The notes beneath the pieces were generated by a model. The model was not told the origin of the DNA and did no database searches. It saw only the letters and a list, made by a program, of their open reading frames with translations. 57,251 nucleotides of DNA from an uncultured Bacilli bacterium (GTDB lineage Bacteria > Bacillota_I > Bacilli_A > RF39 > UBA660), in NCBI GenBank assembly GCA_944350415.1, contig CALVOY010000044.1, positions 1 to 57,251 on the forward strand. The letters are read 5' to 3'. Shown here piece by piece: positions 1-18,632 of the stretch; within the stretch, counting starts at the first letter, position 1; every line of letters starts with the position of its first letter. A program made the translations under genes and the position numbers.

Positions 1-43
1 ATATAATCACTTTATAGCTAGAGTTTTTCTAATTTCAGGCATG

Positions 44-68
44 ATAAAAGGATGATTTTCATCATCCT
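44..68 (-). terminator. Possible weak intrinsic terminator downstream of rnr
   Basis: 8-bp stem AGGATGAT/ATCATCCT with a 4-nt loop (49-68). On the minus strand it is followed only by a short TTTAT run. Confidence 0.35.
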
Positions 69-168
69 CATATATGTAGTTACTTGTATCAATTTAATGT
101 CTACCAACACTATTTGACAAAGAACCATAAAAATAACGAAACTATTTCTAATTATTACTCTTTTCACA

Positions 169-2316
169 CTAAATCAATTCAATTTCACTATCTCTATTTT
201 CTATTTCATCCATTTTTTTGATAATCTCAAAGTCAATAGTTTGTTCCTCTTTGGAAGCTCTAACTACTTTAATCAGAACTCTATCTCCCATAGAATATTT
301 TGTTTTCGTCTTCTCTCCCACAACAGACATACTTCTTTCATCATAATGAAAAAATTCTTTCATATCAGCCAAACGGCACAATCCTTCTATCAAATTATCT
401 AATTGAATAAAAATACCAAAGTTTGTAATACTAGACACTGTTCCTTCGAATTTCTCTCCGATATGATCTTCCATATATTCAGCCATTTTCATATCCTCTA
501 CTTCACGCTCACAATTAACAGAAGCTTTTTCACGACTGGAAGCAATCTCCGCTACAACAGGCAACTTATCTTCCCAATGTTGAATCGTTTCTAAACTCAA
601 ATCATTTTTAAACAAATAAGTACGAAGAAGCCTATGAACTGTAGTATCAGGATATCTTCGAATTGGAGAGGTAAAATGGGTATAACATTTACTTGCCAAA
701 CCATAATGACCTAAGTTTTGAGGTTTATAAACTGCTTTTTGCATACTACGAAGAAGTAAGCTAGATAAAATTTTAAATTCCTTTTTATCTTTTAAAAACT
801 CTAATAATTTTTGAACACTTTTTGGATTATTATCTTTCATATTTCCTTTATAGACATAACCTAGAGTACCAATATATGATAAAAAGTCATGAATTCTCTC
901 TTCTTTAGGAACTTCGTGAACACGATAAATAAAAGGTAGTTCCATATAAAATATATGAGTAGCAACACATTCGTTAGCTATAATCATAAAATCTTCGATT
1001 AAATTTTCACCTACTCCTCTTTCTCTAAGAACAATATCCGTTGGATGACATTTTTCATCCACTAAAATTTTAGCTTCATCCACATCAAAATCTAAGTATC
1101 CTCGAGCTAATTTGCTTTTACGCAAAATTTTAGCAAGCTCTGCCATCATTTTTAGATCATCAGCAAATTCTTCATATCCTTCTGGTACAATATTATCTTC
1201 TAAAATACTATTAACGGCTGTGTAAGTCATCTTCTTACGAGACTTTATAAAACTTTCAAAGATATCATAATGGATAATTTTACCACTATCATCAATTTCC
1301 ATAACACAAGAAATAGTAAGTCTTTCCACACCTTCATTCAAAGAACAAATACCATTGGATAGCTGATGAGGAAGCATAGGGATCACCCTATCTACCAAAT
1401 AAACACTAGTCCCTCTATCCATAGCATTAATATCCAAAGCAGAACCTTCTTTTACATAATAACTAACATCCGCAATATGAACTCCTAATTCGTAATGACC
1501 ATTTTCCAATTTTTTAATAGAAATGGCATCATCGATATCTTTAGTATCTGCACCATCTATCGTAAAAATTACTTCATTCGTTAAATCTCGTCTTCCTTTT
1601 TTATCTTCTGCTGTTACTTCACTAGGAATCTTCTTCAACTCTTCAATCACTTCATCAGGAAAAGTATCATGAATATTATACTTATAAACAATGGATAAAA
1701 TATCTACTCCTGGATCATTTTTATGTCCTAATATTTTTACTACTTCTCCACGATAAATATTATCATGTAATTGCTCTAAAAGTTTCACTTGAACTTTATG
1801 CCCATCTACTGCACCATGAATATATTCAGGATCAATCATAATATCCATTTTTAGTCTTTCTTCATCTAAGATAATATGTCCTTGATTGTTATCCAGATAA
1901 AATTCGCCTACTACAAACTCTAAGTTACGATCTAGCACTTTTAGAATTCTACCTTCTAACTTATTTTTTTCTTTTTTCCCTGTAACTTCTGCTACAACCA
2001 AATCATTGTGCAAGGCTCCATTCATATTTCCAGATTCAATATAAATATCTTCTTCATCCGGTATCTCTACAAATCCGTATCCCTTTTTATTGACTCTTAG
2101 AATTCCTTTTTTCAAAGGACCTCTATCAAATGTCATGTAATGATTTTTATTCGTTCGATAAATTGTATAATCATCACACATTTTATTAATAGTATCTTCT
2201 AATTCTCTAAATTCTTCTGCCGTTTTTAATTCCAATAAATGATCGATTTCTTCAATGCTTAAAGCTTTATTTTTTCTCTTTAATAAATCTAATATTTTTT
2301 TTTCCAAAAATATCAC
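169..2316 (-). CDS. rnr: Ribonuclease R (3'-5' exoribonuclease, RNB family)
   Basis: 715-aa ORF. RNB catalytic core motifs are present (FTIDGADTKDIDDAISI, YRVHEVP, HYGLASKCYTHFTSPIRRYPD). N-terminal cold-shock-like region and C-terminal S1-like domain (EGTVSSITNFGIFIQL). Confidence 0.92.
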   Translation of the reverse strand: MIFLEKKILDLLKRKNKALSIEEIDHLLELKTAEEFRELEDTINKMCDDYTIYRTNKNHYMTFDRGPLKKGILRVNKKGYGFVEIPDEEDIYIESGNMNGALHNDLVVAEVTGKKEKNKLEGRILKVLDRNLEFVVGEFYLDNNQGHIILDEERLKMDIMIDPEYIHGAVDGHKVQVKLLEQLHDNIYRGEVVKILGHKNDPGVDILSIVYKYNIHDTFPDEVIEELKKIPSEVTAEDKKGRRDLTNEVIFTIDGADTKDIDDAISIKKLENGHYELGVHIADVSYYVKEGSALDINAMDRGTSVYLVDRVIPMLPHQLSNGICSLNEGVERLTISCVMEIDDSGKIIHYDIFESFIKSRKKMTYTAVNSILEDNIVPEGYEEFADDLKMMAELAKILRKSKLARGYLDFDVDEAKILVDEKCHPTDIVLRERGVGENLIEDFMIIANECVATHIFYMELPFIYRVHEVPKEERIHDFLSYIGTLGYVYKGNMKDNNPKSVQKLLEFLKDKKEFKILSSLLLRSMQKAVYKPQNLGHYGLASKCYTHFTSPIRRYPDTTVHRLLRTYLFKNDLSLETIQHWEDKLPVVAEIASSREKASVNCEREVEDMKMAEYMEDHIGEKFEGTVSSITNFGIFIQLDNLIEGLCRLADMKEFFHYDERSMSVVGEKTKTKYSMGDRVLIKVVRASKEEQTIDFEIIKKMDEIENRDSEIELI

Positions 2317-2396
2317 CTTATTCTTTCTAACTATATTATAAGATAAAGTTCTTTTTTGTACAATAGAAAAAAGGAATCAAACATTCCCTTTACACT

Positions 2397-4600: not shown

Positions 4601-5839
<1,239 letters not shown>

Positions 5840-12565: not shown

Positions 12566-12979
12566 TTACTTTTTAGGTTTCTTAGCACCATATTTACTAC
12601 GACCTTGTTTTCTATCTTTAACTCCAGCTGTATCTAAGGTACCACGAATGATGTGATAACGAACTCCGATTAAGTCCTTAACACGTCCACCACGAACCAA
12701 AACAACACTATGCTCTTGTAAGTTATGTCCTTCACCAGGAATATAAGTATCTACTTCTTTTCCATTAGATAAACGAACACGAGCATACTTTCTTAAAGCT
12801 GAGTTTGGTTTCTTTGGTGTCTTAGTACCTACACGAGTACAAACTCCACGTTTTTGTGGACTATTCAATTTAGTAGATTTTCTTTGAATAGTATTAAGTC
12901 CAAATCCTAATACTGGAGATTTACTCTTTCTCACTTTATCAGTTCTCTTTTTTTTAATCAACTGTTGTATCGTAGGCAT
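12566..12979 (-). CDS. rpsL: 30S ribosomal protein S12
   Basis: MPTIQQLI... with the [10 protein letters not shown] motif. 137 aa. Confidence 0.97.
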
Positions 12980-13077
12980 ATTTTATCTCTCCTTTCTTTA
13001 CACATAACCAGGTGTATCATAATTCTATCTAAATATAAGTTTTGCCCAAAGCAAAACCTAAATTTATTAGCATGTAT

Positions 13078-13106
13078 AATATAACATTCTTAACTAGGAA
13101 AGTCAA
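13078..13106 (-). promoter_or_regulatory. Candidate sigma-A promoter of the rpsL-rpsG-fusA-tuf operon
   Basis: Minus strand reads TTGACT-17 nt-TATATT with a TG extended -10 (ATGTTATATT). It lies about 95 nt upstream of the rpsL start. Confidence 0.55.
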
Positions 13107-13319
13107 TAAAAAACTATAAAATATTAGGATAAAATATAGAAATAGATAGCCAATAATAAAACATAATACCACTAAATGCAGAATGCATATATTTCTTTTT
13201 CATAAAATTCCATGTGAAATAGAATGAATAAATTCTTCTGTTAAATTATAAGTCTTCTATTTCATATTTCAAAACATAAAATAATGATAAAAAATAAAAA
13301 GATAATGTATATTATCTAA

Positions 13320-13436
13320 TCAGCCAAGTCCTAAATTAGAGGCACCAATGCTAATTAAAATAATAGCAATAAAGAATACCAACAGAAATGCTAGTAATAC
13401 CCCAAGTCCCCAACCACGATTATTTAAATGAAACAT
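13320..13436 (-). CDS. Small hydrophobic protein (38 aa), below the ORF-track cutoff
   Basis: Translation is MFHLNNRGWGLGVLLAFLLVFFIAIILISIGASNLGLG*. The ATG is preceded by AGAGGTG at 6 nt. One TM helix. Confidence 0.5.
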   Translation of the reverse strand: MFHLNNRGWGLGVLLAFLLVFFIAIILISIGASNLGLG

Positions 13437-13555
13437 GCTATCACCTCTAATGATATTATTATATGATAAAACCAAAGAAAAAGGAAGATAAACCACAATA
13501 TTTCTTCCATATAAAAATAGTATAAAAAAATTATAAAATATTAAAAATATATATT

Positions 13556-14728
13556 TTATTTGAAAGTTTTCATTTTCTGAAAAGCCTGTTCAATCACTTG
13601 AAATTGTTCTGAAAACACATTTTTTTGTTCTAATAAATCTGTATTCTCTTCTTCTAACTGTTTCTTTTCTGCTTCTATTTGGATCAATTGCTCTTTTAAG
13701 CTTTGTAGCTCTTCTTTTAAACTTTGATTTTCTTTTTCCAATACAGAATAATTAGATTGAACACTATCCATATTGATATGTGCCTTAGAACAAATTAAGT
13801 TATTACAAGCATCTATTAGCTTTCTAATATCTTCACTAAGTTCCACCTCACCAACTACTTCAGAAATCGTATTAATATCTAATATATCCCCACCTGCAAT
13901 AGTATCTACCAAAAAACTCAAAACATTAGAATCAGTTTGTTTGGATTCTAAATTAGCTTTTGTTTTATTAATAGAGAAAAAATAATCACTAGAAGTAGAA
14001 GGAGTAGCATCATATTTTTTAGCGAAACTTATTACTCTTTTTAAAGCATCTATTTTATCATTTAAAGAAACTTTGATACTATTAGTATAATTTGCATTAC
14101 GATTATTTATTTTCATATGATATGGATAAGTTAAATCTTGTTTAAATGCTATTCTACTAATATAATTATCAAATTCACTGTAATCATCATATTTTCTAGA
14201 AGTAACAGGCAAATAAATAAAATCAACTGTAGGACTTTTCACTAATCCTAAAATCCCATAAGAACTAAGTGCTATTTTTCTAACAATATAATAGTCACAA
14301 ACTTCAGCCATTTCTTCTACTTGATAGGTTCTTTCTCTATCGTATTTAATCACAAATACAAGATCATCTGTTCTAATTTTAATATTAGATAAAAAGGAAT
14401 CTAATTTTTCATGAACATTTTTGGAAAAAATAGAATTACTATCCAGTTTTCCACTACTAATTAATCTAGAAAATTGATAGGAATTTTCTAAAAAATAATG
14501 AAGAGAATCATAAGAATTAGTTGCGGATTTAAAAAATCCCAATTGTCTTAAGTAATCAATATTAACACCTAAAAGATGAGCAATATGATTTTTAGGTACC
14601 ATAATATTTAACATTTCACCATTAGCAAGATATAAAACCTGTTGATTAGTATCAAAAGTCATTCTATCATATCGTTCTACACAATCATTAATTTTATCAA
14701 TTATAGCATTAAATTCACCTGTAGTCAT
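13556..14728 (-). CDS. Orphan 390-aa protein: N-terminal globular region plus C-terminal heptad coiled coil, with no signal peptide
   Basis: Long ORF whose ATG follows a GGGGGG Shine-Dalgarno. The C-terminus is LEKENQSLKEELQSLKEQLIQIEAEKKQLEEENTDLLEQ. It sits between rpoC and rpsL. No family recognised. Confidence 0.7.
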   Translation of the reverse strand: MTTGEFNAIIDKINDCVERYDRMTFDTNQQVLYLANGEMLNIMVPKNHIAHLLGVNIDYLRQLGFFKSATNSYDSLHYFLENSYQFSRLISSGKLDSNSIFSKNVHEKLDSFLSNIKIRTDDLVFVIKYDRERTYQVEEMAEVCDYYIVRKIALSSYGILGLVKSPTVDFIYLPVTSRKYDDYSEFDNYISRIAFKQDLTYPYHMKINNRNANYTNSIKVSLNDKIDALKRVISFAKKYDATPSTSSDYFFSINKTKANLESKQTDSNVLSFLVDTIAGGDILDINTISEVVGEVELSEDIRKLIDACNNLICSKAHINMDSVQSNYSVLEKENQSLKEELQSLKEQLIQIEAEKKQLEEENTDLLEQKNVFSEQFQVIEQAFQKMKTFK

Positions 14729-14756
14729 AATATAACCCCCCTTTTTAAGTGGTCAT

Positions 14757-14789
14757 ATTATATCCCCCCCCCCCCCACCACCTTGTCAA
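14757..14789 (-). promoter_or_regulatory. Consensus -35/-10 promoter with a homopolymeric G13 spacer (candidate phase-variable promoter)
   Basis: Minus strand reads TTGACA (14784-14789), AGGTGGT, G13, A, TATAAT (14757-14762). The spacer is 21 nt. The downstream start codon is at 14728. Confidence 0.65.
14764..14776. repeat. Homopolymeric tract C13 (+ strand) / G13 (- strand)
   Basis: Counted directly: tatCCCCCCC CCCCCCacca. It is the only long G/C homopolymer I noticed in the window. Confidence 0.95.
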
Positions 14790-14980
14790 GAGGGAATACT
14801 TTTCTTTAAAAAGTATACTAATAAATTAAAACTAATAATACTCATTTTGGTTAAATATAAATAGGATAATTTTAATTTCAAAAAATTGATAATTGCAGCC
14901 AAAATGTTAACAAAAAACATCAATCAATAACACATCATAATATGATAATAAGGAATAGCAAAAAATTCTAAAATCTCTTT

Positions 14981-15019
14981 AAAAAAGAAAAAAAAGAAGA
15001 GTCTACATAAACTCTTCTT
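14981..15019 (-). terminator. Intrinsic terminator of rpoBC
   Basis: 9-bp stem AAGAAGAGT/ACTCTTCTT encloses the rpoC stop codon. On the minus strand it is followed by TTTTTTTTC. Confidence 0.75.
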
Positions 15020-18000
15020 CTAATGTTTCAAGTGGTTCTTCATCCACAAACTGACTAGCTAAATCAAAATCAACATTTTTATATTTTTTAGCACCTGTAC
15101 CAGCTGGGATTAATTTACCAATAATAACATTTTCTTTTAATCCTTCTAGGTGATCAACTTTACCACGAATAGCGGCATCTGTTAAAATACGAGTCGTTTC
15201 TTGGAAACTTGCTGCAGATAAGAATGATTCTGTCTCTAGAGAAGCCTTGGTAATACCTAAAAGAATTGGTCTACCACTAGCTGGTTTTTTACCAGTAATA
15301 ATAGCTTCTTTATTAGCACTAGTAAAGGTTGAAAAGTCTACCAAGGCTCCTGGTAAGAACTTCGTTCCTCCTCCTTCAACAATACGAATCTTACTAATCA
15401 TTTTGCTAGCAATTACTTCAATATGTTTATCAGAAATGTCAACACCTTGACTACGATAAGTATTTTGAACTTCTTTTAAGATATATTCTTGAGTAGTAAG
15501 TGGATCCGTTACAGCAAGTAATTCTTTAGGGCTAATTGCACCTTCGGTAAGCTTTTCACCTGCTACTACTTTAGAACCCTTTTCTACACGAAGTTTAGCG
15601 CCATAATTGGTAACATGTTCTTTGGTTTCAACATCATTCTTAATGGAAATTCTAAACTTACCATGATCTTCATCAATCTTCGTAACTTCACCATCAATTT
15701 CAGCAATGGTTGCTTTTCCTTTTGGAATACGAGCTTCAAATAATTCTTGTACACGAGGAAGACCTTGGGTAATATCTTCTCCACCAGCAACTCCACCAGT
15801 ATGGAAAGTTCTCATGGTCAACTGTGTACCAGGTTCTCCAATAGATTGAGCTGCCATAACTCCAATAGCTTCTCCAACTTCTACTAAGTTACCTGTAGCT
15901 AAGTTACGTCCATAACATTTTTGACATACACCATGGTTAGAAGCACAAGTTAAAATTGTACGAATTTCAACTTCTTCAACACCACTAGCTACAATCTTAT
16001 CAGCAAGCTGTTCTGTTACAAAAGTTAATTTATCACAAATCACTTCTTTGGTTTCTGGATGAATTACTTTCTTATTTGTAAATCTACCAACAATTCTATC
16101 TCTTAACGATTCAATCACAGCACCAGTTTTATCATTAATGAATGCGCGAACTACAACACCTTGATCAGTTTCACAATCTTCTTCGCGAACGATAATATCT
16201 TGACTAACATCTACCAAACGACGAGTTAAATATCCAGAATCAGCTGTTTTCAAAGCAGTATCAGCACTACCTTTACGAGCACCATGAGTACTTAAGAAGA
16301 ACTCAGATACTGACAATCCTTCTTTGAAAGAAGATAATACTGGAATTTCTACACTTTCTCCATTAGGTTTTGCCATTAATCCACGCATACCTGCAACCTG
16401 TGTAAAGTTAGAAATATTACCACGTGCTTTAGAATGCATCATCATGAAAATTGGATTATCCATATCCGCATTCGCTTTTTCTTGAAGTTCTGCTTGAACT
16501 TGATCTTTAGCACTATTCCATGTTTCCACTACTTTCTCATATCTCTCTTGATCAGTAATCAAACCACGTTTATATTGTTTATTAATATTATCTACAATTT
16601 TCTGAGCATCCTGAACAATTTCAGGTTTCTTATCACTGCTTACAACATCAGCCATAGATACCGTAATACCAGCAATCGTAGAATATTTAAATCCTAAATC
16701 TTTTAATTTATCCAACATGATAGAAGTCTCAGTTGTTTTATAGCGTTTAAAAATCTGCGCAATAACTTTTTCTAAAACACCTTTAGCAAAAGGTTTCACA
16801 AGTGGCATATTAGCTACTACTTCAGGAATATTCTTTCCCATCTCAATGAAATATTTATTAGGTGTAATATTTTGAATATTATCATCAGTAGGTTCATTAA
16901 TATAAGGGAAAGAATCCGGTAAAATTTCATTAAATTTAACCTTACCAACAGTAGTAACTAAGTACTTTCCATGTTGTTCTTCCGTAAATAATTTATATTT
17001 GAAAGAATCTACTGGAATTACGATTCTGGTATGAAGAGTTACTTCTCTTCTTTCATAAGCCATTAAAGCTTCGTTAGTGTTTCTGAAAATTCTTCCTTCA
17101 TCTGGAAGACCAGCTTTTTCCATCGTAATATAATAATTACCTAATACCATATCTTGAGATGGAGTTACAATCGGATCTCCTGATTTTGGATGTAAAATGT
17201 TGTTAGCACCTAACATTAAAAGTCTAGCTTCAGCTTTTGCTTCTTCGGATAAAGGTACATGAACTGCCATTTGATCTCCATCGAAGTCAGCATTAAATGC
17301 TGTACAAACAAGTGGATGCAAACGAATAGCTTTACCACCAATTAATACCGGTTCAAAAGCCTGAATACCAAGTCTATGAAGTGTAGGAGCACGGTTTAAT
17401 AATACAGGATGCTCTTTGATTACTTCTTCTACAACATCCCAAACAATAGGATCTTGATTTTCAATTAATCGCTTAGCAGCTTTGATATTATGAGCAATAT
17501 CTTTGCTTACTAATCCATGAATAACATGTGGTTTAAATAACTCAAGTGCCATTTCTTTTGGAATACCACATTGATACATTTTAAGAGATGGCCCAACGAC
17601 AATAACACTACGACCAGAATAATCAACACGTTTACCAAGTAAGTTTTGACGGAAACGTCCTTGTTTTCCTTTTAACATGCTAGAAAGTGATTTTAAAGGT
17701 CTATTACCAGCACCAGTTACACTTCTACCACGACGTCCATTATCAAATAAGGCATCAACAGCTTCTTGCAACATACGTTTTTCATTTTGAATAATGATAC
17801 TAGGAGCACCTAAATCAATTAACTTCTTTAAACGATTATTACGATTAATGACACGACGATATAAATCATTCAAATCACTAGTTGCGAACCTACCACCATC
17901 TAATTGGATCATTGGTCTTAACTCTGGTGGAATTACTGGAATACAATCCATAATCATCCATTCTGGTTTATTGCCAGATTTATGGAAAGCATCTAATACA

Positions 18001-18632
18001 TCAATTCGTTTAAGTAAACGAGTTCTTTTTTGACCTTGAGCATCTTCTAACTCTTTAGTAAGTTCATTTAATTCTGCTTCAATATCTACTTTTTTCAAAA
18101 GCTCTTTGATAGCTTCTGCTCCCATACCAACCTTAAAAGTATTACCATATTTTTCATAGTAAGCACGATATTCTTTCTCTGATAAAGTTTGTTTATTTTC
18201 TAAAGGCGTATTTCCTTTATCAATCACAACATAACTTACAAAATATAATACTTCTTCAAGATCTCTTGGACTCATATCCAAAACAAGACCCATACGGCTA
18301 GGTACACCTTTAAAGAACCAAATATGAGAAACAGGAGACGCAAGTTCAATGTGACCCATTCTCTCACGTCTTACTTTACTACGAGTAACTTCAACTCCAC
18401 AACGATCACATACGATATTTTTATAACGAACTCTCTTATATTTACCACATGCACACTCGAAATCTTTTGTAGGTCCAAAAATTTTCTCGCAGAATAATCC
18501 GTCACGTTCTGGTCTTAAAGTACGATAGTTAATCGTTTCTGGTTTCTTAACTTCACCATAACTCCATTCACGAATCTTTTCAGGAGATGCAATACCAATT
18601 TTTAAAGCTTCAAATTTATCTACTGCTATCAT
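15003..18632 (-). CDS. rpoC: DNA-directed RNA polymerase subunit beta'
   Basis: 1209 aa with the NADFDGDQM catalytic motif and the zinc-binding CxCGKY...C..C segment. Confidence 0.98.

Follow-up and report, generated by a model that had tools for sequence, protein, structure and literature searches.

In Neisseria, opc is phase-variable through a poly-C tract in its promoter spacer, and in Mycoplasma hyorhinis the vlp promoters carry a poly-A tract in the spacer and are ON at about 17 nt. Sigma-70/sigma-A promoters have a spacer optimum of 17±1 nt, and an extended -10 element can lessen a promoter's dependence on its -35. For fetA and porA, a poly-C or poly-G tract between the -35 and -10 elements makes transcription depend on their spacing, in graded steps (PMC5320596), and in the sortase-dependent pilus genes of Bifidobacterium breve slippage at an intragenic G tract turns reading frames ON and OFF (PMC9187656). 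Phase variation at SSRs has been documented mostly in pathogens, and a review that also cites the Vlp system asks whether this reflects sampling bias (PMC11868660).

The locus described here has the textbook layout, a homopolymer in a promoter spacer whose length varies between near-identical strains, and it belongs to an uncultured gut commensal lineage. We believe, with a probability of roughly 70%, that its slippage-prone G13 run, lying in the spacer of a sigma-A-type promoter, acts as a heritable and reversible transcription dimmer for a PBECR4-like gene. The sequence analysed, hereafter the window, is a stretch of 57,251 nt (contig CALVOY010000044.1) from an uncultured Bacilli bacterium; the features on which the argument draws, there and in related contigs, are collected in the table.

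Read directly from the minus strand, the 5' region of the gene runs CTC-TTGACA-AGGTGGT-G13-A-TATAAT-ATGACCACTTAAAAA-GGGGGG-TTATATT-ATG, which is the arrangement that the initial annotation had described: a consensus -35 and a consensus -10 held 21 nt apart, G13 included. A promoter-spacer homopolymer can be defined as a run of at least about 8 nt between the two hexamers, and here 13 G lie between TTGACA and TATAAT. At the -10 the window allele reads GGATATAAT, without the TG of an extended -10. An alternative -35 placed at 17 nt in this allele was rejected, the hexamer there being CAAGGT, a poor match. The G+C content of the window is 30.5%, and runs of at least 13 C are expected from base composition about 2e-5 times; only two of its G/C runs reach 6 nt, the C13 and the C6 of the Shine-Dalgarno, both in the 5' region of this gene, and the earlier remark that the window holds no comparable G/C homopolymer is correct, the tract being its sole G/C run of more than 6 nt. 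Across the window and about 150 kb of homolog loci, G/C runs of at least 7 are confined to this gene and the sequence just 5' of it. A search of positions 12900-15100 against Rfam, at E up to 1, matched no RNA family, and a known RNA element was rejected. The + strand of the window holds 10978 C and 6484 G, and ORFs of at least 100 aa lie nearly all on the minus strand; this suggests that the whole window belongs to a single replichore and that its genes are co-oriented.

Table. Positions of the promoter, gene and neighbouring features in the window, and of tract alleles and assembly breaks in related contigs
Sequence	Feature	Position	Strand	Remark
Window	rpsL	12566-12979
Window	38-aa hydrophobic small ORF (MFHLNNRGWGLGVLLAFLLVFFIAIILISIGASNLGLG)	13320..13436	-	3' of the gene in both close clades
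Window	terminator-like hairpin and T run just 3' of the 390-aa ORF	13474..13508	-	fold energy -6.0 kcal/mol; conserved in clade B
Window	390-aa ORF	13556-14728	-	between rpoC and rpsL
Window	start codon ATG of the 390-aa ORF	14726-14728	-
Window	G6 Shine-Dalgarno	14736..14741	-	7 nt 5' of ATG
Window	-10 hexamer TATAAT	14757..14762	-	preceded by GGA, not TGA, in the window allele
Window	promoter spacer AGGTGGT-G13-A	14763..14783	-	21 nt
Window	G13 homopolymer (C13 on the + strand)	14764..14776	-	hypervariable element
Window	-35 hexamer TTGACA	14784..14789	-	TTGACA, TTGACT, TTTACA or TTGCAA at the equivalent place in all homolog loci
Window	3'-end remnant of a degenerate LysR-family gene	14786..14827	-	NLLVYFLKKSIPS and stop, versus QFIDFLKKNTPS and stop in L001
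Window	second promoter-like site TTGAAA-16-TATATT	14854-14881	-	10/12 matches; rpoC-proximal intergenic part
Window	rpoC terminator-like hairpin	14992..15021	-	isolates the unit from rpoC read-through
Window	rpoC	15003-18632
390-aa protein	divergent PBECR4-like N-terminal domain (predicted)	residues ~1-245		followed by a helical region
390-aa protein	C-terminal coiled coil	residues ~327-389
Window (clade A)	allele AGGTGGT-G13-A			spacer 21 nt
L021 (clade A)	allele AGGT-G16-A			spacer 21 nt
L023, L024 (clade A)	allele AGGTGGT-G10-TGA			spacer 20 nt
L029 (clade A)	allele AGGT-G11-TGA			spacer 18 nt
L001 (clade B)	allele G12			spacer 19 nt
L003 (clade B)	allele G13			spacer 20 nt
L026 (clade B)	allele G10			spacer 17 nt
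L028 (clade B; Logan)	allele A-G7-TGA			spacer 11 nt
L002	N10 scaffold gap at the tract	~2946-2965
L022, L027	contig begins within the tract or immediately after it
L026	contig start at the -35
L025	G18 run, unrelated (junk) sequence upstream	1-110
L016 (mouse gut)	intragenic G9	4871-4879		frameshifted
L030 (contig of intact protein P0027)	intragenic G13	2380-2392		in frame
L031-L038	intragenic tract	~1480
Mouse-gut cluster	intragenic G10			in frame; 21 contigs
Mouse-gut cluster	intragenic G11			frameshifted; 9 contigs
L036, L038	intragenic GGGGGAGGGG (G5AG4)			synonymous interruption, in frame

The gene itself had been taken for an orphan, a view that does not survive a wider search. Full-length homologs fall into 40 clusters in a collection of 5.8 billion proteins, and an exhaustive search with residues 1-250 as query brings the family to 276 clusters at 50% identity, nearly all of 370-400 aa, in uncultured gut Bacilli; the loci that can be named belong to MAGs of uncultured gut Bacilli and to "Clostridium sp. 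CAG:451", and the sources include water deer, rumen, the Hadza human gut and mouse. No record matches the window protein exactly. Against Pfam the window protein matched only coiled-coil models, PBECR4 not among them, and across Pfam, PHROGs, PADLOC and NCBIfam it gave coiled-coil noise or weak matches; a profile search of the PDB returned coiled coils only, and a fold search of the PDB no match at an E of 1e-3 or better. In the AF2 model (mean pLDDT 83.5) an N-terminal alpha/beta domain is followed by a helical region and then by a long coiled coil at the C terminus; against BFVD the model matched two unnamed phage proteins at E of about 1e-5. PBECR4 (PF18813) is the Barnase-EndoU-ColicinE5/D-RelE-like nuclease 4 of phage polyvalent proteins, and it is matched by 4 of 105 distant members (best E-value 7e-11), by the homolog P0030 at 28.1 bits where the gathering cutoff is 27, and, in a precomputed record, by the frameshift-truncated P0050. 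All 105 members share S102, Q197 and G54, and each of H51, K108 and Y129 is conserved in no fewer than 90% of them. By this transitive homology the 390-aa product is predicted to be a divergent PBECR4-like protein with an RNase fold and a coiled-coil tail. Because it has neither a signal peptide nor a transmembrane segment, it is expected to be cytoplasmic.

Distant members of the family offer an independent view of the promoter. At 17 distant homolog loci we chose the best pair of -35 and -10 hexamers located 5' of the Shine-Dalgarno, and in all 17 a -35-like hexamer, a TATAAT-like -10 and a G-rich Shine-Dalgarno follow one another in that order, the last being a block of G4-G7 or GGAGG/GAGGG in every homolog. 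The spacer is AT-rich and 16-17 nt long in 16 of the 17, the exception (L005) allowing an equally plausible reading with 17 nt, and the -10 lies 25-28 nt from the ATG, or 33 nt in L005. Because this phylogenetic footprint keeps the same promoter at the matching place in distant loci, the original assignment of the two hexamers is valid. None of the 17 has a G tract in the spacer; among the loci compared, the run is confined to the window and its close relatives. The comparison indicates that 17 nt is the functional spacing of the family, and we take the G tract to be a derived expansion inside the spacer of a real, conserved promoter.

Within the close relatives, the spacer behaves very differently. 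The 90% cluster of the window protein has nine members, whose contigs were retrieved, and the comparison set comprised 12 contigs sharing at least 93% identity with the window, compared along 1430 nt on the downstream side of the tract. They form two clades about 7% apart over this length: clade A, with the window, L021, L022, L023, L024 and L029 (0-5 differences per 1430 nt), and clade B, with L001-L003, L025, L026 and L028 (0-6 differences); L027 stands nearer clade A yet separate, at 16-19 differences. The tract in these relatives is G7, G10, G11, G12, G13 or G16, the G-rich spacer spans 11-21 nt, and nearly every near-identical pair differs there, so that length is polymorphic between close strains whose flanks are conserved (0-6 differences per 1430 nt within a clade). 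The initial annotation had proposed a comparison among related genomes as a check on its switch and had named a tract invariant across strains as grounds for refuting it; by that comparison the tract is not invariant, with spacers of 11 and of 17-21 nt, and the proposal withstands the check. The -35, in turn, remains a perfect TTGACA wherever the allele is complete, in clade A as in clade B, although the two have diverged. Pattern scans of JGI metagenomes for further alleles found none. An artefact of the window assembly alone is ruled out, the tract being present in at least 10 independent assemblies.

A second form of the same phenomenon was found inside the gene. In a mouse-gut MAG (L016) the homolog has a normal promoter, TTGACA-17-TATTAT, and carries its G tract within the coding sequence; apart from tract length, the locus is identical over 1450 nt to the contig that encodes an intact protein (L030). 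The mouse-gut cluster contains six protein variants, and five tract states occur in the DNA that was retrieved; in-frame and out-of-frame homopolymer alleles are thus found in otherwise identical genes, which we read as the classical signature of translational phase variation. The GGGGGAGGGG interruption would lock the gene on. By sequence, therefore, slippage-based variable expression of this protein appears to have arisen at least twice, by two mechanisms, and the gene family looks to be a recurrent target of slippage control. Two of the six mouse-gut variants, P0051 and P0053, show a second varying repeat, in which NGNYNYNATSS becomes NGNYNYNYNATSS with an extra Asn-Tyr (AATTAT).

The genomic neighbourhood tells us how the unit is delimited in the window and how it came to lie there. 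Given the hairpins after rpoC and after the ORF, the gene is best regarded as a self-contained monocistronic unit with its own promoter. The rpoC-rpsL interval, which had been singled out as an unexpected setting for such a switch, loses that distinction: the position is not conserved for the gene, and homologs elsewhere adjoin rplS, ruvA, enolase/GATase and other genes. In clade B the order is LysR, gene, small ORF, HlyIII, with rpsL next in line in L028. Because the window keeps a LysR remnant, and because L028 has the block beside rpsL, the rpoC-gene-rpsL layout of the window can be understood as a deletion derivative. A mobile cassette, consisting of gene, promoter and small ORF and moving between the rpoC-rpsL and LysR-HlyIII contexts, was considered and rejected, since local deletion explains the difference. 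The G tract does not lie at the homology boundary between the window and clade B contexts. The 38-aa ORF has its own -10-like TATAAT and a AGAGGTGA Shine-Dalgarno, and it is absent beside the distant homologs; because synonymous changes between clades A and B outnumber non-synonymous ones (7 to 1, counted by hand from the alignment), it is probably a genuine gene for a small membrane peptide. IS66-family and Y1 transposase genes occur at 5860-7173 of L001, some 1.7 kb downstream of the copy in clade B, with HlyIII and a 177-aa ORF without a Pfam match in between, which hints that the clade B neighbourhood is prone to rearrangement.

Overall, we believe that these observations fit a simple model. 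Slipped-strand mispairing at the G run during replication would add or remove a G, shifting the distance from -35 to -10 between about 17 and 21 nt; at 17-18 nt transcription would be high, the hexamers being consensus and the spacing that of the rest of the family, and at 20-21 nt it would be low or off. The favourable spacing equals G10-G11 where the flanks are AGGT...TGA, or G9-G10 where they are those of the window, and the arithmetic of the initial annotation, which had placed its ON state at G9-G10, is sound. Because the window allele combines a 21-nt spacer with the loss of the TG of an extended -10, we predict that it is the lowest-expression state seen. We infer slippage to be the cause of the length changes, and switching to occur within one population; that transcription depends on spacer length would follow from the properties of sigma-70/sigma-A, from the 16-17 nt spacing of the family and by analogy with fetA and porA. 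The phase-variation reading first proposed for this tract is strengthened on three sides, by the conserved promoter, by a tract that varies between strains and by the independent intragenic G tract of a relative.

At the same time, the promoter has properties that could blunt such a switch. Eleven alleles cover the bases directly before the -10, and 9 of these keep an extended -10, TGATATAAT; its TGn, present in most alleles and missing from that of the window, could weaken the spacing effect. One may therefore suppose that the tract is hypermutable yet nearly neutral, and that the perfect -10 or another promoter drives transcription. For example, the window has the TTGAAA-16-TATATT site some 90 nt upstream of the promoter with the G tract; in clade B that site is absent and LysR coding sequence stands in its place, the intact LysR ORF ending, as the remnant in the window does, with its stop codon inside the -35 hexamer (TGA within TTGACA) and without a terminator, so that co-transcription is possible there. 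The alleles are also skewed towards long, non-optimal spacers of 19-21 nt, with only two at 17-18 nt. Near-neutrality nevertheless sits poorly with a TTGACA kept perfect in all full alleles of clades about 7% apart, with a family promoter otherwise held at 16-17 nt in all loci but one, and with an ON/OFF tract inside the ORF of another family member, which speaks for variable expression being under selection; we consider near-neutrality unlikely.

Sequencing and assembly noise around a tract of really single length would be a more mundane explanation. Poly-G is error-prone on Illumina and G/T miscalls are common after it, the source contigs have a coverage of about 2.7-6x according to their record names, and single allele lengths may accordingly be off by about 1, while T/G differences within the tract could in part be miscalls. 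Five assemblies (L002, L022, L025, L026 and L027) break or gap at the tract, where assembly fails repeatedly and contigs are left truncated; the junk upstream of G18 in L025 and the odd A-G7-TGA of L028 belong to the same picture. The range from G10 to G16, however, far exceeds errors of 1, two separate studies recovered the same allele (L023 and L024), and the mouse lineage shows G10 on 21 contigs and G11 on 9, across NCBI, ENA and Logan. Thus noise as the main source of the variation is improbable, and real length change at the tract is the reading we retain; the contig breaks and the N-gap are themselves suggestive, though only that, of high-frequency, reversible length change in a clonal population. 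That the run acts through a G-quadruplex on the non-template strand, which 13-16 G could in principle form, or as the site of a G-tract-binding regulator, rather than through spacing, is hardly credible for an element that is missing at the equivalent position in distant homologs, is unconstrained in length (G7-G16), is interrupted by T in some alleles and matched no Rfam family.

The cytoplasmic target of the proposed switch points to bet-hedging over a possibly costly intracellular activity, be it defence, toxin action or RNA metabolism. More tentatively, and with some doubt on our part, the protein might be a costly intracellular effector, for instance an RNase acting in abortive infection or against phage, or a toxin directed at its own cell, placed under stochastic, heritable ON/OFF control as a contingency locus that evolved convergently in two lineages. 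Annotation pipelines will misjudge this family, because the tract breaks metagenome assemblies and yields "pseudogene" calls.

The closest parallels remain those of Neisseria, where porA (poly-G), opc and fetA/frpB (poly-C) likewise have a G/C homopolymer of about 10-14 nt in the promoter spacer, with a length that varies between strains. Here, however, the host is no proteobacterial pathogen but an uncultured low-G+C gut Bacilli lineage, a predicted RNase-like protein of the cytoplasm takes the place of the outer-membrane target, most alleles carry an extended -10, and the switch is a predicted one. Mycoplasma hyorhinis vlp shares the spacer homopolymer and comes from a low-G+C member of the Bacilli/Mollicutes radiation, but its tract is poly-A and serves a multigene family of surface lipoproteins, whereas here poly-G precedes the gene of a single cytoplasmic protein in a genome of 30% G+C that otherwise lacks runs of this kind. 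Bifidobacterium breve, also of the gut, provides the match for the G9, G10, G11 and G13 alleles of the mouse-gut homolog; its switch is translational and acts on a surface pilus, while the tract of the window lies in a promoter and would act on transcription. PBECR4 elsewhere is a domain of phage or conjugative polyvalent proteins, and here the predicted PBECR4-like domain belongs to a stand-alone chromosomal protein with a C-terminal coiled coil, encoded beside housekeeping genes. Among classical phase-variable genes a cytoplasmic target is atypical. In this context, the proposed mechanism is one already familiar from Neisseria and Mycoplasma; what is unusual is where it is found, in an uncultured low-G+C gut commensal, and what it appears to control, a cytoplasmic RNase-like protein.
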